Assembly (NCBI GenBank): GCA_030668825.1 | Contig: DAOVET010000031.1 | Coordinates: forward strand, 1-28,771 | Reading direction: 5' to 3' | Length of the DNA stretch: 28,771 nucleotides | DNA from: Candidatus Heimdallarchaeota archaeon | Lineage (GTDB): Archaea > Asgardarchaeota > Heimdallarchaeia > Heimdallarchaeales > Heimdallarchaeaceae | Shown here: one piece after another, positions 4,483 through 27,947 of the stretch | Position numbering within the stretch: position 1 is the stretch's first letter | How the letters are laid out: every line of letters starts with the position of its first letter | The notes under the pieces: generated by a model | Told to the model about the DNA's origin: nothing | Databases searched by the model: none | Seen by the model: the letters and a program-made list of their open reading frames with translations, nothing else | Program-made: the position numbers and the translations under genes

Positions 4483-5319
4483 ATGAAACCTGCAATCGTT
4501 ATAGATAGTTCTTCTGAACTACCTCAGAAGCTTTATCCGAAGTATAATATCTTTCCTCTAGGTTATGTTATAAGAGATTCTAACAATGAAACTCATAAAG
4601 AGCGAACACAGGTTCAAACATTACAAACAAGCAAGCTACTCTCAATAATTTCCAACGATAATAATGCACAGCTTTTTGCTCCCAGCATAAAGGATTTTGT
4701 AGAGCTTTATACTTTTCTCTCAGAAGAATTTGATTCTATTATCAGCATTCATTCTTCTTTTGCAACCCCTGCTGTATTTGAGAACGCTTTGGTAGCAAAG
4801 AAACTTGTTTCTGAAATAAGTATTGATGTTATTGATACTCATACATTAGGTTCTTCTTCTGGTTTATTTGTTGAAGAATTGTCAAAATTCATCGTAGAAG
4901 CTAAGAATATTAATGAAATCAGAAAGGAAACAATAAGTTTAGACAAACACATTAATTCCTTCATAATAACGAAGAATGAACATTTAAACTTAACAGGTTT
5001 AAAGAAAATTGATTGGAGAAAGAGCTTAACTACATCGTTCAAAACATATAGTTTGTACAATTATTTCCAGACTAATTGGAACATTCTCTCTAACAGTCGA
5101 AACACAAACAAGCTTTTTTACAAAATACAAGAAAAATTGGCGGTTATTATTAAAACTAAAGATCTGAGAAATGTGTTTTACACATCCAGTAAGAATTTTT
5201 CAAAAGATACTAAATCCACTTTAAGCAAAATGAGGAAAATCCCTAAAACTGAAACAAAATCTTCTCTAGTTGCTTATTATTTGTTAGGAGATAATTCATT
5301 TGATATCTCTTTCATTTAA
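4483..5319 (+). CDS. Degenerate DegV-family protein
   Basis: IVIDSSSELP, APSIKDFVELY, IISIHSS and IDVIDT match the DegV N-terminal domain; the GGR and HxGxG motifs are absent. Confidence 0.75.
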   Translation: MKPAIVIDSSSELPQKLYPKYNIFPLGYVIRDSNNETHKERTQVQTLQTSKLLSIISNDNNAQLFAPSIKDFVELYTFLSEEFDSIISIHSSFATPAVFENALVAKKLVSEISIDVIDTHTLGSSSGLFVEELSKFIVEAKNINEIRKETISLDKHINSFIITKNEHLNLTGLKKIDWRKSLTTSFKTYSLYNYFQTNWNILSNSRNTNKLFYKIQEKLAVIIKTKDLRNVFYTSSKNFSKDTKSTLSKMRKIPKTETKSSLVAYYLLGDNSFDISFI

Positions 5320-6142: not shown

Positions 6143-7120
6143 CTATAGTAGTTTTTCTTTGAATACCTGAAGCATATCTAGTCCTCTAATTTCTCTATCT
6201 AATGCTTCAATTTCTGTAATGATTGTTTCTGGAAAAGCTGATTTGATATACTCGATATTCTTTAGGTGCTCTTTGTGTCTATGCATACAATAGGAGCAAC
6301 CATCATTAGCTGGATTTATCTGATTTACTACTGCAAATTTATGTGAAATAAGATGTTGATCTAGTTCTTCAACGAGTCTTTCCGTTTCAAAAACACTCAT
6401 CATTGTTGGAATTAGTACTTTAATGAATTGTGTTTGTTCTTCATCCATCAGCTTGTCTCTCGCAACCAAAACCTTCTCTTTCATAGTTTCAAGAGTTTCA
6501 ACAGTTCTATCCTTCTCTTGACTTCCTCCAAACAAGGATTTCATCATTGTCATAGCGTTTGAAATGAAGGTTTTCATTTTAAGCATTCTTCCTAAAAATG
6601 AATCAAGGAACTCAGGAATATTTAATAATCGTAAAGTGTGACCAGTTGGAGCTGTATCAAGGATTACTGTGTCGTATATCTCATCCTCTGCATATTCTAG
6701 AATTTTTGCGAAAGATAAGGCTTCATCCATACCTGGAGGTGGAATTGATTTTAAATCTTGACCCAAACCTTGTTGTAATTCCCCCAAACCAGGAATAGCC
6801 GAAAATTGTGAGAATTGATCTGAATCAACAGGTTGTCCTATAGCCTTAGATATTTCCTCACCTGCTGCAGCAGGATTGATTTCAAGAGCAAATAGGTCAC
6901 CAGCAACTCCTTTGACTTTAGTTATTTCACCCTTAGAAAAATCCATATCAAATGAATCAGAAACACTATGGGCAGGGTCAGTTGAGATAATTAAAACTCT
7001 TTTACCTAGTTCAGCCAAAGCTATTCCTAGTGCTGAGGCAACGCTTGTTTTTCCTACTCCTCCTTTTCCCCCAACTAAAATGTATTTTAGATCCATGCTA
7101 GTAATTTCTTTTAAGGACAT
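6143..7120 (-). CDS. get3: Get3/TRC40 (ArsA-family) ATPase, tail-anchored protein targeting factor
   Basis: GKGGVGKT P-loop, STDPAH, DTAPTGHTLRLL, single ATPase domain, Met-rich insert (MLKMKTFISNAMTMMKSLFGG) and CSYC dimer Zn motif. ATG at 7120 preferred over the track's TTG at 7129. Confidence 0.88.
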   Translation of the reverse strand: MSLKEITSMDLKYILVGGKGGVGKTSVASALGIALAELGKRVLIISTDPAHSVSDSFDMDFSKGEITKVKGVAGDLFALEINPAAAGEEISKAIGQPVDSDQFSQFSAIPGLGELQQGLGQDLKSIPPPGMDEALSFAKILEYAEDEIYDTVILDTAPTGHTLRLLNIPEFLDSFLGRMLKMKTFISNAMTMMKSLFGGSQEKDRTVETLETMKEKVLVARDKLMDEEQTQFIKVLIPTMMSVFETERLVEELDQHLISHKFAVVNQINPANDGCSYCMHRHKEHLKNIEYIKSAFPETIITEIEALDREIRGLDMLQVFKEKLL

Positions 7121-7188
7121 CAAAATCAATTGCTTCTTGTTATATATAAAATATGAGATTTGTTGAAGTTTTAAAGAAAAAGAAAAGA

Positions 7189-7980
7189 TTACCTTCTTTT
7201 CTTGGTTTTTCTTTTAATCTGCTTCTTACTTTTTTGAATAACGGTTCCTTTTTTATCCCTTTGTTTCTCCTTCCCTTTCTTAGCTTCTCGAGGTCTCTTA
7301 AAAACAAGATAATCAATTAAAACAAGAGCGCCTATTCCAAATACTATTGCTAATGAATAATACAAGATATTCAACCAGAGCTTTGCATCTAAAACTACAA
7401 TATTCTCAGGTTTAATAGATGAAATGAAGAATCTCTGAGACTGTGCATTATATTTTTTTTCATCAATGCCGTAATATTCAATAGTAGTTGGTTCTAAAGT
7501 AAAGTTTCCTTCAGAAAGAGGTTTGAAGTAATAGTAATAGTATATAGTTGCATTTGGTTCTACTATAACATACTTTTGGGTTGTTAAATTTAAACTAGAA
7601 ATAGCCCAATCAGAAAAACTTGGATCAACTATTGTAAGATTATATGCAGTTTGATTACCAATGTTCTTAATAGTAATATTAACAAAAACCCATTCCTCGA
7701 TATCTGGGTTGATTTCTGTATCGTTAACATCTTTAGCAAGATCAAGAATGGGCCTATCAAGGAAAGAATCATTGATTTGACTAAATGTTTGAAGAGTCTT
7801 GTCTATTGTTGTAGTCATATTGTTTTCCGAATTAATAGCTATTGCACTATTAATGGATGAGTGTGAAATAGTTAAGCCTAGAAATAGCATAATTGTAAGA
7901 TATACTGTTGTGGGTCTAGAGATTCTTTTAATCATTGATTTCTTATTCCTTAATCTTCTAAACATGCTTGAATCAGCCAA
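7189..7980 (-). CDS. Type I membrane protein with Ig-like domain, TRAP-beta (SSR2)/BatD-like
   Basis: Signal peptide, VNITIKNIGNQTAYNLTIVDPSF...EPNAT...FKPLSEGNFTLEPTTIEY, C-terminal TM helix, very basic cytosolic tail, 9 N-x-S/T sequons. The true start is probably ATG 7935 or 7965. Confidence 0.7.
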   Translation of the reverse strand: MADSSMFRRLRNKKSMIKRISRPTTVYLTIMLFLGLTISHSSINSAIAINSENNMTTTIDKTLQTFSQINDSFLDRPILDLAKDVNDTEINPDIEEWVFVNITIKNIGNQTAYNLTIVDPSFSDWAISSLNLTTQKYVIVEPNATIYYYYYFKPLSEGNFTLEPTTIEYYGIDEKKYNAQSQRFFISSIKPENIVVLDAKLWLNILYYSLAIVFGIGALVLIDYLVFKRPREAKKGKEKQRDKKGTVIQKSKKQIKRKTKKRR

Positions 7981-8110: not shown

Positions 8111-8998
8111 ATGACAGTTAAGATCATATGTGACACAAGCGCCGATTTAAACTTACAAAATGATGAAACACTATACGAGAAATATGACATTGAGTGGGTT
8201 CCAATGCAAGTTATGTTTGGAACAGAAGCATACAAGGAATTAGAAAATCTAAAAACATCAGAATTTTATGAAAAACTTTCTAAAACTGATGTTCATCCTA
8301 CAACCTCTCAGTCTACTCAAGCAGATTTACTTGTAGCTTATGAGAAATTTGGAGACAAAGTTGATGAAATTATCTCTATACACATCTCAGGAGAAATTAG
8401 TGGAGCTGTAGCCAGTGCTCGTATGGCTAAAAAAATGTATGAAAAACAGCATCCAGATGGAGCAAAAGTACACATTTTTGATTCCAAAACAGCTAGTGCG
8501 AACTTCGGATTAATTGCTTTAAAAGCAGCAATTCTTGCTAAGGAAGGTTTGAGTGCCGAAGAAATTGTACCTAAGCTTGATGAGTGGAGAACTAAAGATC
8601 AATCCTTCTACTTTACAGTAAAAGACCTAAAATGGCTGTTTCAAGGGGGAAGATTGAGCAGGACAAAATATGTCCTAGGTTCTCTTTTATCAAAAATTCC
8701 TATTTTCCAAATGATAGATGGGAAAATTGTACCCGTTAAAAGTGTTTCAGGAAAGGATGCTGCTATACAAACTATAATTGAGATGCAGATGAAAGATTTG
8801 CAGGTTGATCCAAGTGAATTAACATTGCATTTCACCCAAGCACAAATTTACTCTGAAACAAAAGAGATTGCAGCTCAATTAGTAGAACAATATCCAGGTT
8901 TGAAAATAGGTAAAATCTTCTCTATGGGTGGTGTAATAGCTTCTCATACTGGTCCTGGAACAATTGGTATAATACTTACAAAAAACTTTGAATATTAA
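8111..8998 (+). CDS. degV: DegV/FakB-family fatty acid-binding protein
   Basis: CDTSADL, PTTSQ, ISGEISG, FDSK, LFQGGRLS, SHTGPG. Confidence 0.93.
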   Translation: MTVKIICDTSADLNLQNDETLYEKYDIEWVPMQVMFGTEAYKELENLKTSEFYEKLSKTDVHPTTSQSTQADLLVAYEKFGDKVDEIISIHISGEISGAVASARMAKKMYEKQHPDGAKVHIFDSKTASANFGLIALKAAILAKEGLSAEEIVPKLDEWRTKDQSFYFTVKDLKWLFQGGRLSRTKYVLGSLLSKIPIFQMIDGKIVPVKSVSGKDAAIQTIIEMQMKDLQVDPSELTLHFTQAQIYSETKEIAAQLVEQYPGLKIGKIFSMGGVIASHTGPGTIGIILTKNFEY

Positions 8999-9054
8999 AT
9001 TTAAACAAGCAAAGTTTAAATTTAACTTTTTTTTCTTTCCATTAGGTTTATCAG

Positions 9055-9933
9055 ATGACTGTAAGAATAATGACAGATAGTGCTGCAGATATAACTCCAG
9101 ATTTAATCAAGAAGTACAATTTATCACTAGTTCCAACAGTGATAAGATTTGGTGATGAGATATACTATGAAGGAATAGATATTGATTTAGAGCAATATTA
9201 CGATAAATTTTTCACCTCTAAAGACTACCCTCAAACTGCTAATCCAACTCTTTACCACCAATATGAATTATTTGAGAAATTAGGAAATGAAGCGGATGAA
9301 GTAATAAATATAGTCATTTCTTCGGGTATTTCTGGTTCCTTTAATACAGCAATTAATGCTAGAAGAAGATATGAACAGAAGGTTAAGAACCCAGCTAAAA
9401 TTCTTATTTACGATTCAAAACTAGCAACTTTTGGTATAGGTGTAATTTCAATCATGGCAGCTGAGCTTGCTGAAAAAGGTCTGAGTGCTGATAAAATAAC
9501 CCCCAAATTAGATGAATATAGAGATAAGCTTGAAGTTGGTTTTACTGTAGCCGACCTAAAGTATTTACACAGGGGAGGAAGACTTAGTAGATCGAAGTAC
9601 TGGGTAGCTAAAATAGCTGATAGGAAACCTGTGATAGTTTTTGAAGATGGTAAGATGAATGTAGTTAAAACTGTTAAGGGCCATGAAAACGCCGTCATTG
9701 AATCATTTGAGTATGTTTATGAAAAAACAGGAAGACCCAATACTTTTAATGCCTATATTATGCATGCAAAGAATATGGATTCTGCAAAATTACTGAAAGA
9801 TTACATCATTGATAGGTTTAAACCCGAGGAACACAACATATCAATAGATGATTTAGGAATGGCTGTTACTACTCATACAGGTCTTGGTAGTATTGGTATT
9901 TGTTTGGATACACATTATAAATTTCTAAAATGA
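9055..9933 (+). CDS. degV: DegV/FakB-family fatty acid-binding protein (tandem paralog)
   Basis: TDSAADI, PQTANP, ISSGISGS, YDSK, YLHRGGRLS, THTGLG. Confidence 0.93.
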   Translation: MTVRIMTDSAADITPDLIKKYNLSLVPTVIRFGDEIYYEGIDIDLEQYYDKFFTSKDYPQTANPTLYHQYELFEKLGNEADEVINIVISSGISGSFNTAINARRRYEQKVKNPAKILIYDSKLATFGIGVISIMAAELAEKGLSADKITPKLDEYRDKLEVGFTVADLKYLHRGGRLSRSKYWVAKIADRKPVIVFEDGKMNVVKTVKGHENAVIESFEYVYEKTGRPNTFNAYIMHAKNMDSAKLLKDYIIDRFKPEEHNISIDDLGMAVTTHTGLGSIGICLDTHYKFLK

Positions 9934-10718: not shown

Positions 10719-12422
10719 ATGAGAAAGATGTCTATTATAACTCCTGAAGCTTCATTCATTTTTGTTTATATCGCACTGTTATATAATGCGGGTTTATCAC
10801 TTAAGTTGATCTATAATTCTTTATCAAATCCTCTTTATGAAAGGAAAGTATGGAATTTATCATCTGCCGGGTTAATCTTTGTAGGAACGATTCTTTTCTT
10901 CCTCTGGTTTAATTTCTCATTGTCAGTAGATTTTGTTTGGGGGGGTCTAGTAGGCTGTTTTCTTCTGTTTGTAAACAACCTGTTAGCTACAATTTTTGCA
11001 TTTAAAAATTTAATTGAAGTTTCAAGATGGGGTAAAGCTAACTATATTTTCTTCACAGTTTTATCTTTGCAGTCGTTTATGTTATTACTAAATTTCATTG
11101 AAGCTCAAACAATTTTTGGTTTGCCTAGAGTTCTAGAATGGCTTATGATTATTCCTTCAGTTGGATATTCAGCTTTTCAAGCTTTTCTATATGGTCCAGT
11201 AGGTTATTTCTTCCCAGCACTTCTTTTGATTCCCCTTGCTGCTCCTATCAAATTTATGAGACCTCCTGAACCGGAACCGGAACCTGAGAAAACTACAACT
11301 AAAAAAACCAAAAAACAAGGTAAAGATTCAAAAGAGAGTGTATTTACAGAAGAAATTGAGATTCCAGAACAGAAGAAACCAGCAGTGTGGAAAACAATAC
11401 TTTCTTTTCTGGATAATGGTTCAAAAGGAATATTTGCTATTCTATTCATTTTACTAATGGTATTTAGCCTTCTAAATATTGGTACATTCACTTCATTCAG
11501 TGATTTTAAAGGCTCAGATTATCAACCTACATATCCTGAAAGAACTGATTTTGAATTCAGTGTATCATTAAAGACAATTACTTATCAACAAACCCTACTG
11601 TTTAACTATGAAGCTGTCTTTCAAGAGGAACTAGCTTTAATCAAGGAATTGAATGTTTCCACTGTAAGAATTGATATTAAAGCAGAGATTATTGATAACA
11701 ATCTAACAGAACTTATAGATATCACAGACCAACTCCATGCAAATGGTTTCAAAATCATGTTATCAACGTATGGATACGGATTTCCAACATGGAATTATCA
11801 AGCGGTCAATTTCACTGATTATGTCGATGTCATCGAACAGCAAGCTAAAACATTGATTCTTAACTGTACTCCTGAATATCTTCTTATCTATCCAGAACCT
11901 CTCGGTTTCTCTTCAGCATTTGTTAGAGAATTACAAACTCCTGTAGTTTGGGCATCTACTATAAATGATTCAGTGAACTATCTTAGATCTTTTACAAATG
12001 ATACAGAGATTGGCGTAAATCTCTCGTTTAATGATTTTGATAAATATGCTTTTGAAACTAGTGTATTCGAAGAATTATGGGAAAATACTACTCTTGATTT
12101 CATGGGAATCGATTTCTACATAATACATGCAAGGGATCTAAATTTAGACGTATATCTTGAAGATGTAACAAGTAACACAAAAGAATTCTGGGTGTGTGAA
12201 TTTGGCGTATCAGCAGTTATGTATGGTGAGAGAATTCAAGAAGCAGCTTTAGCGAGATTACTTGAGATATGTGTAAAAGAAAGTAGAATAAAAGGTTTCA
12301 ATTATTTCTCACTAATAGATGACTTAGCAGGTGGAAATTCGCTCGGATTAGTTGGGCAAACTGGTCACCAAAGGCTTTCATTCTATAAATATCAAGAAAT
12401 AATCAACAAAGTTGTTTTATAG
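10719..12422 (+). CDS. Polytopic membrane protein fused to an extracellular clan GH-A glycoside hydrolase (TIM barrel)
   Basis: About 5-6 N-terminal TM helices, a PEPEPEPE/K-rich loop, a further TM, then ELNVSTVRID, IYPEP (acid/base-like Glu), DFMGIDFY, WVCEFG (nucleophile-like Glu), GFNYF; many N-glycosylation sequons. Confidence 0.75.
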   Translation: MRKMSIITPEASFIFVYIALLYNAGLSLKLIYNSLSNPLYERKVWNLSSAGLIFVGTILFFLWFNFSLSVDFVWGGLVGCFLLFVNNLLATIFAFKNLIEVSRWGKANYIFFTVLSLQSFMLLLNFIEAQTIFGLPRVLEWLMIIPSVGYSAFQAFLYGPVGYFFPALLLIPLAAPIKFMRPPEPEPEPEKTTTKKTKKQGKDSKESVFTEEIEIPEQKKPAVWKTILSFLDNGSKGIFAILFILLMVFSLLNIGTFTSFSDFKGSDYQPTYPERTDFEFSVSLKTITYQQTLLFNYEAVFQEELALIKELNVSTVRIDIKAEIIDNNLTELIDITDQLHANGFKIMLSTYGYGFPTWNYQAVNFTDYVDVIEQQAKTLILNCTPEYLLIYPEPLGFSSAFVRELQTPVVWASTINDSVNYLRSFTNDTEIGVNLSFNDFDKYAFETSVFEELWENTTLDFMGIDFYIIHARDLNLDVYLEDVTSNTKEFWVCEFGVSAVMYGERIQEAALARLLEICVKESRIKGFNYFSLIDDLAGGNSLGLVGQTGHQRLSFYKYQEIINKVVL

Positions 12423-12437
12423 AAATAATGAAGAACT

Positions 12438-12494
12438 GCCTCAGACCGCCCATCAGCGATCATATTATCACACGACCGTTGTGTCATCATTAGC
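12438..12494 (-). ncRNA. Box C/D guide sRNA (2'-O-methylation guide)
   Basis: Minus strand: GCUA-[C AUGAUGA 12490-12484]-CACAACGGUCGU-[D' GUGA]-UAAU-[C' AUGAUCG]-CUGAUGGGCGGU-[D CUGA 12444-12441]-GGC. Two 12-nt spacers, a short terminal stem, and a D guide antisense to the conserved 16S sequence ACCGCCCGUCA. Confidence 0.88.
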
Positions 12495-12524
12495 TAATTC
12501 CTCAAGGAAAATAATCGAGTTTTG

Positions 12525-12546: not shown

Positions 12547-13800
12547 CTATATGGACATTGCTTGAGCCATGGAAATGTATCCTTCAACCTCACTTTTAGC
12601 TATTCTAACAAACTCTAATAGCTGTTCAAGATTGCCCTCTGAAGCACTTAGGTGAGTCTCTTCAAGCCTTTTCATAGCTTCCTCAAATTTTGATAACGCA
12701 TCTTTGAATTGTTCTTGATCAAAAAGAGAAATTCCCTCTGTTTCTGAAGCTAGTGCTTCATAGAAAGATCTTTGAGCAGTCATATTTTTGATAAGTGATT
12801 CGCTTTTAATACTTGTTAGAAGACCCAAAGCAATATCTACTGATTCAACTGCTTTTTTGAATTTATTACTTGCATCTATTGGATTATCTCTTCTTTTATA
12901 GAGTTCATTAGCTTCAGATTCAAATTGGCTGGCTTGAGTGATTCGAGATAAAGCTAAGTACAGACGTTGTTCCATAAAATTTGAACAAATTACACTTGCT
13001 CTCGAATAATATTTGGATGCTATCGCAAAAAACCTTAGAGCTTCATTGAAGTTACTTATAATTATACTCTCTGTCCCTTGATCCCAAAACAATTCAGCTC
13101 TACCGACTATATGTGCTTTAGTTATCTCATCTATCTTGTTTTGCATATCTTCCATTTCTTTATCAAGTGATTTAAACAAAAAGTTGGCTTTCATTAATTC
13201 TGTTCTTGCATAAAGAAGGTGTTTCTTTGACTCTTTTGTGTTATCTGTAATTGATTCAGAAAGTTTTAACTCATAGATATATTTGGCATAACTTATTCTT
13301 GAATTTGAAACACTCACATCAATTGGATTATCGTCACTTTTGCGATTTTCTGAAAATTCTTCAAAGAAACCAATAGCTTCTTTTGCTGCTTGAATTTGAT
13401 TTTCTATGTTTTGATCAAGAAATGAGTTGCAAATTCGACACATCCCCTCAGAATAATTTATCCATTTAACCATCTCATTGAAAATTCTATCTCCTTCTCT
13501 CCCTCTAGAAGCTTTTGCTCGGATTAGCAACTTCAGTGATTCTTCATAGTTTTTTTGAGCATCAGCCTTCTTATCCTTTTTGAATAATTCGTCTCCTTTA
13601 ACAACATAAAGCATTCCAGCATAATAATATGACAAAACTTTGAATGCAACATTATCTTCTCCTGCTTCTTTAAATTCATTATACAGTTTAGAATATTCAT
13701 TATACGATGCTTTTAGATTTGAATAGACTGGTTCATAATGTAAAAATTGGAATTCAAGACTCTTTGTACTCAAAGGAACACCAAAATAATAATGAATCAC
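12547..13800 (-). CDS. Alpha-solenoid (TPR-like) hypothetical protein
   Basis: All-helical, with recurring G/A-x-x-L-F/Y...A-x-x-x-F/Y-x-x-A units (e.g. KGDELFKKDKKADAQKNYEES; EGISLFDQEQFKDALSKFEEA). The start may be TTG 13773 after a GGTG RBS-like site. Confidence 0.75.
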   Translation of the reverse strand: MIHYYFGVPLSTKSLEFQFLHYEPVYSNLKASYNEYSKLYNEFKEAGEDNVAFKVLSYYYAGMLYVVKGDELFKKDKKADAQKNYEESLKLLIRAKASRGREGDRIFNEMVKWINYSEGMCRICNSFLDQNIENQIQAAKEAIGFFEEFSENRKSDDNPIDVSVSNSRISYAKYIYELKLSESITDNTKESKKHLLYARTELMKANFLFKSLDKEMEDMQNKIDEITKAHIVGRAELFWDQGTESIIISNFNEALRFFAIASKYYSRASVICSNFMEQRLYLALSRITQASQFESEANELYKRRDNPIDASNKFKKAVESVDIALGLLTSIKSESLIKNMTAQRSFYEALASETEGISLFDQEQFKDALSKFEEAMKRLEETHLSASEGNLEQLLEFVRIAKSEVEGYISMAQAMSI

Positions 13801-25346: not shown

Positions 25347-26273
25347 ATGATAATGAGTTTAGCAACTAAAATTGGTAATATAACTATCAGAAATCCAATA
25401 ATACTAGCTTCTGGAGTTTTAGGAACGACTTATTCCACTCTAAATCGAATGTATGAAGCTGGTCTTGGCGCGGTTATAACAAAAAGTATTAGCAGCAAAT
25501 CTAGAGCTGGAAATCCTAATCCAAGTGTTTTTGCACTCAATGATATTCGAAGTGTGATTAGCTCTGTTGGATTAGCAAATCCAGGATACCAAATCTTTAG
25601 AGAAGACATTGAAATTCTAATGAAGAACTCTACTCCTACTATTGTTTCAATTTTTGGAGAAAATAAAGAAGAATTTATAGAAGTTCTTGATGGGTTAAAA
25701 GATCTTCCTGTACTTGCTTTTGAATTAAATATTAGTTACCTCAATACTGAGAAGGGAGGAACACAAATTGGAACAGATCCTGATTTAGTTTATGAAATTG
25801 TTAAGGAATTAAGAGAAAAAACCAGAATACCCCTCTGGGTTAAGCTAACTCCCAATGTATCAGATATTATAGAAATTGCTTCTGCTGCAGTTCAAGGAGG
25901 ATGTGATGCTTTAGTTGCAATAAATACACTGAAGGCTATGGTTATTGATATTCACACTAAACAACCAATTCTTGGGTATAAGAAAGGGGGCTTATCTGGT
26001 GCTGCAATAAAACCTGTTGGAATAAGATATGTTTATGACCTCTATGAGCATTTTGGAAATAAAATACCTTTGCTAGGAGTAGGAGGGATTTTTAGAGGAG
26101 AGGATATAATAGAATACCTTTTAGCTGGAGCTTCAGCTGTAGAAATTGGAACTTCTCTTGGAGTTGCATATCCTGAAAATATGGTTAGATTCTTCCAGAT
26201 GAAAATAAAGAAATATATGAAAGAACAACAATTTGATTCAATTGGTGAAATTACAGGAGGAGCTCACAGATGA
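25347..26273 (+). CDS. pyrD: Dihydroorotate dehydrogenase family 1B catalytic-subunit homolog (catalytic Cys missing)
   Basis: LASG, TKS, GNPNP, VKLTPN, AINT, GGLSG..IKP, GVGGI; however the active-site loop reads ELNISYLN instead of ELNxSCPN. Confidence 0.88.
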   Translation: MIMSLATKIGNITIRNPIILASGVLGTTYSTLNRMYEAGLGAVITKSISSKSRAGNPNPSVFALNDIRSVISSVGLANPGYQIFREDIEILMKNSTPTIVSIFGENKEEFIEVLDGLKDLPVLAFELNISYLNTEKGGTQIGTDPDLVYEIVKELREKTRIPLWVKLTPNVSDIIEIASAAVQGGCDALVAINTLKAMVIDIHTKQPILGYKKGGLSGAAIKPVGIRYVYDLYEHFGNKIPLLGVGGIFRGEDIIEYLLAGASAVEIGTSLGVAYPENMVRFFQMKIKKYMKEQQFDSIGEITGGAHR

Positions 26274-27121
26274 CAAAACAAACCCTTCCTAATGATAAAC
26301 CGATTATGGGAGAAATAGTTGAAAAATGGGGAGAGTGCTTTGAAACTTATTGCTTCAAAATAAAACTACCAGTTAAAGTTCAAAGTGCTAATCCAGGACA
26401 ATTTATCATGCTGTGGGTTCCAGGTGAAGATGAATACCCAGTAGGTATTGCTGGATTAAAGGATAGCATTCTAGAAGTTGGAATTGCCAAAATGGGTCCA
26501 GGAACGGAAGCTATGCATAAGAAAGAAGTTGGAGATTTAGTTGGTATTAGGGGTTTTTATGGTAAACCATTCACTCCTCCAGAAGGTGTGAACCACCTTC
26601 TAATCGGGGGAGGATTTGGTATGACACCTTTAAAATTACTTACTGAAAAACTAATGAGCAATGAGAATAAGCAAAATATCCATGTTTTTGAGGGAGCCCG
26701 ATCAAAAGATAGATTAATGTATCTCAAGTGGTTACAAGATTTTCACGATCAAGGCAAAATCAATTTTCATGTATGTACAGACGATGGTTCGTATGGATAC
26801 CAAGGTTTTCCAACTGTTGATTTAGAAATGTTCCTTCAAGAATCAGAAACCCCATCAGTAATATATGCAGCAGGTCCAGAAAAGATGATGAAAGCGATTT
26901 TTGATTTAGGTAAGAAATTTGCTAATGTTATTGATATGCAAATGAGTCTGGCTGATAGATACATGAGATGTGGGTTCGGAGCTTGTTCAAGCTGTGCTGT
27001 GGATCCTACAGGTTGGAGGATTTGTGTGGATGGACCCATTTTTAACACAGAGAAACTTGAGAAAATAAGTGATTTTGGTGTCTACAAACGTCTTGAGACA
27101 GGTGAAAAAAAGAGGATTTAG
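26270..27121 (+). CDS. pyrK: Dihydroorotate dehydrogenase electron-transfer subunit
   Basis: PGQFIM, IGGGFGMTP, TDDGS.G, MRCGFGACSSC...ICVDGPIF [2Fe-2S] motif; ATGA overlap with pyrD. Confidence 0.9.
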   Translation: MTKQTLPNDKPIMGEIVEKWGECFETYCFKIKLPVKVQSANPGQFIMLWVPGEDEYPVGIAGLKDSILEVGIAKMGPGTEAMHKKEVGDLVGIRGFYGKPFTPPEGVNHLLIGGGFGMTPLKLLTEKLMSNENKQNIHVFEGARSKDRLMYLKWLQDFHDQGKINFHVCTDDGSYGYQGFPTVDLEMFLQESETPSVIYAAGPEKMMKAIFDLGKKFANVIDMQMSLADRYMRCGFGACSSCAVDPTGWRICVDGPIFNTEKLEKISDFGVYKRLETGEKKRI

Positions 27122-27167
27122 GAAATTGTAGTTCTACAAAATCTTATTGAAGAAAGATACTTCCTAT

Positions 27168-27947
27168 TTATTTTGTAGCAGAATAGATTTTTAGAACTTC
27201 AAGTTCAACTCTATTCCATTGTTTGATTTTCTCCCACCGTGATCCTATTCCAGCTATAATTACTATTTTAACTGGTTTAGCTTCACATTTTCTTACTAAA
27301 TCTATTAGAGCAGTTTGTGTTGATCCTGATCTTATTATATCATCTACTATCAGTATCTTTTCTTCAGAACGAATGAATTTAGCGTCAACTCCTATAGTTT
27401 CAACTCTCCCTTGAGATGTTGATTGTATATCAGCAGTAATGAACATTGTAGTACCTAAAGGTTTTCTCTTTCTAGCATAGACACAATCAATATTTAACAG
27501 ATGAGCTAAAGTCATAGCTATTGGAATACCATCTACTTCAGCTGTAATTATCTTATCTACATCAAGTGGGATAATCCCTTGATATATTGCTAAAAATAAT
27601 ATTGCTTTTAGTGTTTTAGAATCATTAAGCAAATGTAGATTAGATATTCGAATGTTGCCAAACTCATCTATGTCTTTAATAATATGGTCTTTAATAAGCT
27701 GATCAATAGACAAGTTGAAACTTTCATCTTGAGTAAGTGCTCGTAAAAGTTCATCTTTTAGTTTGGATTTTGGTAAAGCTTTTCCATTAATATAACGTGA
27801 AAGATTGGCTATAGATACTTCTACTCCATTTCTTTCCAGTGCTGCTCTCATGCTATCAAGAGTGTCGAATCCCTTAAAGGCCATCTGGAGTAGATTCAAG
27901 GTCATTAGTTTCTCTTGAGCATCTCTACAGCTCTCTGCTGAACTCAT
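27168..27947 (-). CDS. HTH + type I phosphoribosyltransferase-domain protein (PurR-like regulator architecture)
   Basis: N-terminal VSIANLSRYINGKALP (HTH), TAEVDGIP, YARKRK, ILIVDDIIRSGST (PRPP-binding loop). Confidence 0.82.
   Translation of the reverse strand: MSSAESCRDAQEKLMTLNLLQMAFKGFDTLDSMRAALERNGVEVSIANLSRYINGKALPKSKLKDELLRALTQDESFNLSIDQLIKDHIIKDIDEFGNIRISNLHLLNDSKTLKAILFLAIYQGIIPLDVDKIITAEVDGIPIAMTLAHLLNIDCVYARKRKPLGTTMFITADIQSTSQGRVETIGVDAKFIRSEEKILIVDDIIRSGSTQTALIDLVRKCEAKPVKIVIIAGIGSRWEKIKQWNRVELEVLKIYSATK

Follow-up and report, generated by a model that had tools for sequence, protein, structure and literature searches.

A two-armed box C/D sRNA of a Heimdallarchaeota genome with guides predicted for 23S helix 93 and the 16S decoding site

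The sRNA locus and its architecture

The DNA analysed here, called the window below, is the whole stretch of 28,771 nucleotides that forms positions 1 to 28,771 of contig DAOVET010000031.1 (assembly GCA_030668825.1) of a Candidatus Heimdallarchaeota archaeon, which is the host in what follows. As listed in Table 1, a small RNA lies on the minus strand in a gap of 124 bp between two convergent genes. It shows the features of an archaeal box C/D sRNA, namely terminal C (RUGAUGA) and D (CUGA) boxes with a closing stem, a D'/C' motif between them in which stem II and the tandem GA pairs are present, and two guides of 12 nt each, where about 10-12 nt is expected. The fold has a terminal stem of 11-12 pairs with z = -3.32, and none of 200 shuffles was as stable. 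The stretch 12483-12468, re-read on the minus strand with the position and letters that the preliminary description had given to the guide, is thus confirmed at the sequence level: it forms the D' arm, guide plus D' box, of a two-armed box C/D sRNA that is conserved in relatives. Moreover, the host genome encodes fibrillarin adjoining Nop5, together with L7Ae-family proteins. The promoter and terminator scan of this archaeal locus used bacterial-type patterns.

Table 1. Features of the sRNA locus and its neighbouring genes (window positions)
Feature	Positions	Strand	Remarks
Whole box C/D sRNA with terminal stem	12430..12503	-	Ends inferred from the stem, not mapped; intergenic position, fold and synteny
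Terminal stem, 5' arm	12492..12503	-	
Box C, AUGAUGA	12484..12490	-	
D' guide, 12 nt	12472..12483	-	
Box D', GUGA	12468..12471	-	First base non-consensus, paired with C of C'
K-loop linker, 4 nt	12464..12467	-	
Box C', AUGAUCG	12457..12463	-	
D guide, 12 nt	12445..12456	-	Pairs with the 16S decoding region
Box D, CUGA	12441..12444	-	
Terminal stem, 3' arm	12430..12440	-	
Upstream gene, 417 aa, weak TPR match	12547..13800	-	Same strand as the sRNA; conserved neighbour, used for synteny
Convergent gene, 567 aa, no Pfam match	10719..12422	+	Conserved neighbour

The sole Rfam match in the window is sR20 (RF01140) at 12494-12439, with 27.8 bits, below its cut-off of 44; this and the other Pyrococcus sR matches were rejected as an identity, being below cut-off and alike in the boxes only. 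On 17 related loci, too, every Rfam family stayed below its cut-off, and the models of eukaryotic U35 and U43 gave no match in the window or on these 17 loci. Over the host genome a strict pattern gave 8 matches in all, several of which are probably chance matches in coding sequence. Among them are two further C/D-like candidates on G000:C20:+ near 6698 and near 97792, and the D guide of the former resembles that of PFS2, the Plasmodium homologue of U29/snR71. Other genes of the window include a TRAP-beta-like gene followed immediately, on the same strand, by an ArsA/Get3-type ATPase gene (6143-7980), three DegV-family genes (4483-5319, 8111-9933), and a pair of dihydroorotate dehydrogenase genes with a phosphoribosyltransferase gene convergent to them (25347-27947).

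Pairing of the D' guide with helix 93

The host assembly holds no 23S gene and its 16S ends near model position 705, and therefore the targets were read in relatives. From 60 relatives 30 23S loci were taken; the family-level loci covering helix 93 number 14, of which 8 belong to the same genus and 6 to other genera of the family. All 14 have U at position 2594 (E. coli numbering, as throughout for 23S), including those of G013 and G009, whose 16S is 99.86% and 99.71% identical to that of the host over 700 nt. Because of this U2594 the guide finds the full ten Watson-Crick pairs that had been predicted for a host with U there: 12483-12474 stand opposite 23S 2597-2588, guide positions -3 to -12 are all paired, and the N+5 base, 12476, faces C2590, while 12480 faces 2594. 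The two bases next to D', -1 and -2 (12472 and 12473), are indeed unpaired with rRNA as described before, and they can pair with the end of C'. C2590 forms the first pair of helix 93, beside the peptidyl-transferase ring, and is not a catalytic base; of the earlier proposal of a peptidyl-transferase-centre target, the helix is upheld. The numbering was checked on the retrieved part of the alignment of Dennis et al. (PMC4644070), where column 2864 is E. coli 2590. Lui et al. 2018, in the accessible text, require a run of nine or more uninterrupted Watson-Crick pairs with rRNA that spans N+5; here ten are found against the 23S genes of 8/8 family genomes, these genes being the relatives' and not the host's.

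When the host D' guide was scanned over the 16S and 23S of these 8 family genomes, helix 93 was the best site in every one, and a ten-pair run over N+5 was reached by 1.4% of 3000 shuffled guides. The duplex with helix 93 has -18.5 kcal/mol, and the next best site in G013 and G009 has -12.8. That the real target lies elsewhere (16S near 940 of the family genes, a tRNA or an mRNA), or that the match arose by chance, seems very improbable. Such a reading could draw on the 16S of G004, which gives 11 pairs including 2 G-U at -16.5 kcal/mol, and on the scan of host rRNA, which is limited to the 5' part of 16S; but the 16S site falls to 9 pairs (7 Watson-Crick) in the closest relatives G013 and G009, the best of the 38 host tRNAs gives 6 Watson-Crick pairs, the ten-base target word has no other occurrence in the assembled host genome, and the guide follows the change at 2594 between lineages, as described below. 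The search for a better target, which the preliminary description had proposed as a check, leaves helix 93 in place over the rRNA of relatives and the host tRNAs.

A bacterial exact match to the D' guide (L040) was rejected as a homologue and counted as chance because downstream boxes are absent. Regarding the target side, the 23S loci of family f4 (L004, L007 and L031, from G035, G033 and G037) have A at 2590 like E. coli, and therefore f4 offers no C2590 to methylate. In another 23S locus, L003 (G049:C57), helix 93 begins with a divergent sequence, and the contig may be a contaminant from another lineage.

The D guide and the decoding site

The D guide of the same RNA had been assigned to the decoding centre, and the scan agrees with this assignment: the 16S decoding region is its best site in 8/8 family rRNA sets, with 11 pairs (9 Watson-Crick and 2 G-U). 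Its N+5 target is presumably 16S C1402 in the E. coli number. In three orthologs, those of G004, G016 and G023 (L190, L193 and L192), the D guides are mismatched at -2 and the D boxes are variant; position-2 mismatches therefore recur in this RNA family.

Orthologs and the two registers

A pattern built from the D guide only matched 17 of the 31 family genomes, and the D' core is present in 17/17; four further family genomes were recovered via the D' guide. The remaining 10 were searched via the neighbouring gene, which gave 5 readable downstream regions with the RNA in all 5, while among the same 10 the neighbour gene was unmatched in 3 and the contig was too short in 2. Altogether, the 31 family genomes have 26 syntenic orthologs in which the D' core is kept. 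The RNAs in the family are regarded as orthologs because one or both of the same two genes adjoin the RNA in 20/20 relatives tested. Conservation of the D' guide among orthologs, which had been suggested as a check, thus holds both for the RNAs found by the D guide alone and for those found by synteny alone. Pattern matches outside this set were rejected for want of a C/D layout, namely 20 D-guide matches beyond family f13, taken from 24 without loci, and the D'-pattern matches in G044, G032 and G061.

The orthologs fall into two registers. In eight of them (the host, G006, G010, G012, G013, G018, G024 and G028) two bases stand between the core and D', and the N+5 rule points at C2590; in the other 18 of 26 one base stands there, the pairing runs to -1, and the rule points at C2591. 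The placement of N+5 on C2590 in the preliminary description is hence right for the host genome, but does not extend to these 18 orthologs. In most of the short-register RNAs a small hairpin comes after the GA of D' and holds the kink in register, where the host has its linker of only 4 nt. Trees built for both neighbouring proteins (with 16 and 18 rows, short-match rows left out, rooted at the midpoint and with no clade test) place 7/8 of the C2590-register genomes in one supported clade nested among short-register genomes, with G028 apart on a long branch. From this we infer that the short register is the older one and that the host clade would have gained one base before D'. On the sequence evidence helix 93 is the conserved predicted target of this RNA family, while the base targeted by the N+5 rule is not conserved. 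Indels at guide ends have been proposed to shift predicted sites to neighbouring ones in archaea, in the sections of Dennis et al. (PMC4644070) that were available.

Most short-register orthologs leave one purine of C' without a partner. If stacked in the helix, this purine might move the short-register site back to C2590; no precedent of methylation at N+4 was seen in the literature compared. Having two registers among true orthologs offers a natural means of testing how the choice of methylated base depends on stem II of the K-loop.

Covariation and other lineages

A pattern allowing A or G opposite 2594 was run on 400 Asgard genomes and matched in 33 of them, with A in 18/18 family matches and G in 15/15 others. 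Of the 15 non-family matches 12 were inspected; 11 of these have the appearance of full C/D RNAs whose D guides are different, and the twelfth is doubtful. Where the guide and the 23S come from one genome, A stands with U2594 in 11 family genomes and G with C2594 in G085, G114 and G115; G049 is the misfit, being the only one of 15 genomes with a guide and a 23S locus where helix 93 is not the best site. In all 14 genomes with helix 93 as best site the N+5 pair is G-C. Since related genomes are not independent, the change of A to G with U to C counts as about one compensatory change, in the predicted direction.

Eleven C/D RNAs inspected from the Asgard families f5, f9 and f13 also have the C2590 register. 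Moreover, the C1402 guide or the C2590 guide occurs with different partners in other Asgard families (G088-G090, G107, G109, G110; G068, G071, G049, G047, G074, G111-G115, G085), which is consistent with guide modules that were shuffled or that arose separately.

A metagenome scan with a pattern that ignored the D' arm returned 28 loci: 16 with the same guide pair, 7 that are C/D-like with other D' guides, and 5 that look like chance. The C2591 register is found in 15/16 of the loci with the same guide pair. Twelve of the 16 (8 distinct) form a second, GC-richer lineage with G opposite 2594, the C2591 register and the same C1402 and helix 93 guides; this lineage was not found in the 400 Asgard genomes. 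Its loci (L162, L163, L165, L166, L168, L173, L174, L177, L179, L184, L187 and L188) have a conserved TATA-like element shortly upstream.

Mechanism and the methylated base

We consider it probable, judging from the guides and boxes, that the RNA works in a standard L7Ae-Nop5-fibrillarin sRNP whose D' arm would direct methylation to C2590 and whose D arm would direct it to 16S C1402, independently of each other. By analogy with known archaeal sRNPs, L7Ae would bind both kink motifs and Nop5 would dock on stem II; the D' guide would bind helix 93 on its 5' strand while the helix is still unfolded, and methylation would fall on the ribose opposite the fifth guide base counted from D', so that fibrillarin would 2'-O-methylate 23S C2590 via the D' arm. 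The D arm would likewise direct methylation of 16S C1402, and the two arms would act independently on the two subunits.

The structure of the D'/C' motif bears directly on the predicted site. The first base of D' pairs with C' in 8/8 C2590-register RNAs, as G-C in 7 and as A-U in G028, and in the same eight the base that follows C' is able to pair with the invariant G at -2, which against the rRNA makes a G-A mismatch. Because of these two possible pairings, the two bases next to D' that are unpaired with rRNA likely extend stem II. In the host stem II is regular (U-U, G-C, U-G, G-C) and has no bulge, and the parsed orthologs retain the tandem GA pairs of their K-loops. The caveats raised in the preliminary description, two unpaired nucleotides and non-canonical D' and C' boxes, are therefore real features but weaker objections than was feared, since the stem of D'/C' is closed by the G-C swap, and some human sites are fully methylated despite a mismatch at position 2. 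In the part of Krogh et al. at hand, human rRNA has 8 interactions with a position-2 mismatch at fully methylated sites, and one annotated position-2 mismatch with 11 further pairs that is unmethylated.

According to the available text of van Nues and Watkins, when D' does not begin with C, the methylated site in yeast can move or become two. This suggests a different outcome, in which the arm would still bind helix 93, with methylation at C2591 alone or together with C2590. The extended and non-consensus stem II would lead the protein to a five-base reading of the D' box (N+6), and the whole family would then keep one site, C2591. The N+5 site in 18/26 orthologs and in the second lineage, with the host clade nested among them, agrees with this outcome, as do the yeast motifs of U18 and snR48, which have a non-C first base of D' and methylate two nearby sites, and those of snR13 and U24 with N+6, as far as the same literature excerpts describe them. 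We nevertheless hold it unlikely, though it is the foremost of the alternatives, as the regular stem II of the host leaves no bulge to give a second register, the accessible archaeal literature proposes that predicted sites move through indels at guide 3' ends, and guides of other Asgard archaea, of crenarchaea and of eukaryotes are directed to C2590.

A further alternative, which we judge slightly less likely still, takes the arm as a folding aid or timing device on the 5' strand of helix 93, with methylation weak or absent owing to the -2 mismatch and the non-consensus D' and C' boxes. It would explain that the pairing and not the base is conserved across the family; it also has parallels in the consulted accounts of conserved pairings with an N+5 mismatch in Pyrobaculum and of Sulfolobus sR105, which has such a mismatch at the C2591 equivalent. 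Moreover, the splice helix of an intron uses the guide-bound bases 2594-2597 in 5/8 same-genus 23S loci. Against this reading stand the N+5 G-C pair of 14/14 genomes with helix 93 as best site, the kept tandem GA pairs and the 8 human interactions at fully methylated sites noted above.

An intron in the targeted helix

The intron just mentioned is a structured insertion of 151-155 nt in the loop region of helix 93, present in 5/8 same-genus 23S loci and in 0/6 from other genera of the family. It is carried by L012 (G009), L014 (G013), L022 (G016), L026 (G020) and L028 (G010, cut off), and thus by the two closest 16S relatives of the host. On visual inspection it folds into a bulge-helix-bulge motif; bases 2594-2597, which belong to the guide target, take part in the central helix, and the cut falls between 2599 and 2600 with an ambiguity of one A. 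No C/D boxes were found in the 4/4 complete introns. Archaeal group I introns at LSU/2593 are known from the retrieved part of PMC6125680; the helix 93 intron differs from them in type and in position.

Comparison with known systems

The RNA class, the C2590 site and a layout serving two subunits are already known; worth recording here are the pairing of a decoding-site guide with a helix 93 guide, the register switch of one base, and the intron in the targeted helix. Our literature search found no usable paper with measured methylation at archaeal C2590 or C2591, the accessible parts of PMC11121408 and PMC12918454 hold nothing on the C2590 or helix 93 site, and no paper mapping Asgard C/D guides was found in a search mainly of openly accessible papers.

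As to archaea, the available sections of Dennis et al. 2015 (PMC4644070) describe helices 90-93 as a methylation hotspot and predict D' guides for the C2590 equivalent (C2864) in Pyrobaculum calidifontis sR30, Thermoproteus tenax sR52 and Ignicoccus hospitalis sR27 and sR124. In Pca sR30 the D' box starts with G paired to C in C', as in the host. The D guides of Pca sR30, Tte sR52 and Iho sR27/sR124 are given there for 23S C2880, G2322 and G2842, whereas that of the host is predicted for 16S C1402. Conversely, Pca sR25 and Tte sR35 have in the same material a D guide on 16S alignment C1389, which is E. coli C1402 by offset, as in the host; unlike the host, they show an N+5 mismatch and a partner guide on a nearby 16S site. 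Rfam sR20 (RF01140) shares the box layout and length of the host RNA, but both guides differ.

The suggestion that one small RNA may modify both subunits is upheld in that both guides match their predicted sites, but the layout is not as unusual as was supposed. At least four cross-subunit guides are predicted in the retrieved sections of PMC4644070 (Neq sR11, Pca sR16, Iho sR52 and Iho sR314); these, like human SNORD30 and SNORD68 and Dictyostelium CD7, CD19 and CD25, have one guide per subunit as the host RNA does, although for other sites. For SNORD30 and SNORD68, which serve both subunits, the authors saw no support for coordination. In the accessible part of Lui et al. 2018, 260 of 327 rRNA-targeting Pyrobaculum RNAs are dual guides, and 237 of the 260 have their sites within 100 nt, so that the cross-subunit layout is a minority; the excerpt of Breuer et al. 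2021 agrees.

The closest comparison is with eukaryotes. In the portions of the tables retrieved from PMC8817022, PMC5199042 and PMC2656528, yeast Cm2959 and human Cm4506 (old numbering) belong to U35/SNORD35/snR73, and yeast Cm1639 and human Cm1703 to U43/SNORD43/snR70. These tables bear out both the earlier equation of C2590 with the site of snR73 and human U35 and the statement that two separate snoRNAs serve the two sites. The register was matched on Plasmodium PFS17, the U35 homologue, whose D' guide has the two-base spacing of the host and a core that differs in 1/10, opposite 2594; since PFS17 shares the register of the host, the equivalence of C2590 and Cm2959 is confirmed. A guide on the C2590 equivalent by N+5, as in U35/snR73, is found in the host and not in 18/26 orthologs. 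Plasmodium PFS3, moreover, has a decoding-site guide near-identical to the host D guide. Such likeness of guides is no proof of descent, because a conserved target forces similar guides. We give little credence to a bolder scenario, in which an old archaeal family would have joined the U43/snR70 and U35/snR73 guides in one gene, resembling their precursor, and would also present a natural experiment in site choice, where the methyl was transferred from C2591 to C2590, the site conserved in eukaryotes, by a change of one base in the K-loop that apparently happened more than once, or where the unpaired purine of stem II lets short-register orthologs break the N+5 rule and reach C2590.

To sum up, the host RNA and eukaryotic U35/snR73 with U43/snR70 have the same two target sites, but in eukaryotes these are served by two separate, longer snoRNAs, whereas the host has one RNA of about 60 nt that consists mostly of boxes and guides. 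For a close prokaryotic relative of eukaryotes this gives a testable prediction, that one 60-nt RNA marks two sites which are methylated in yeast and human.
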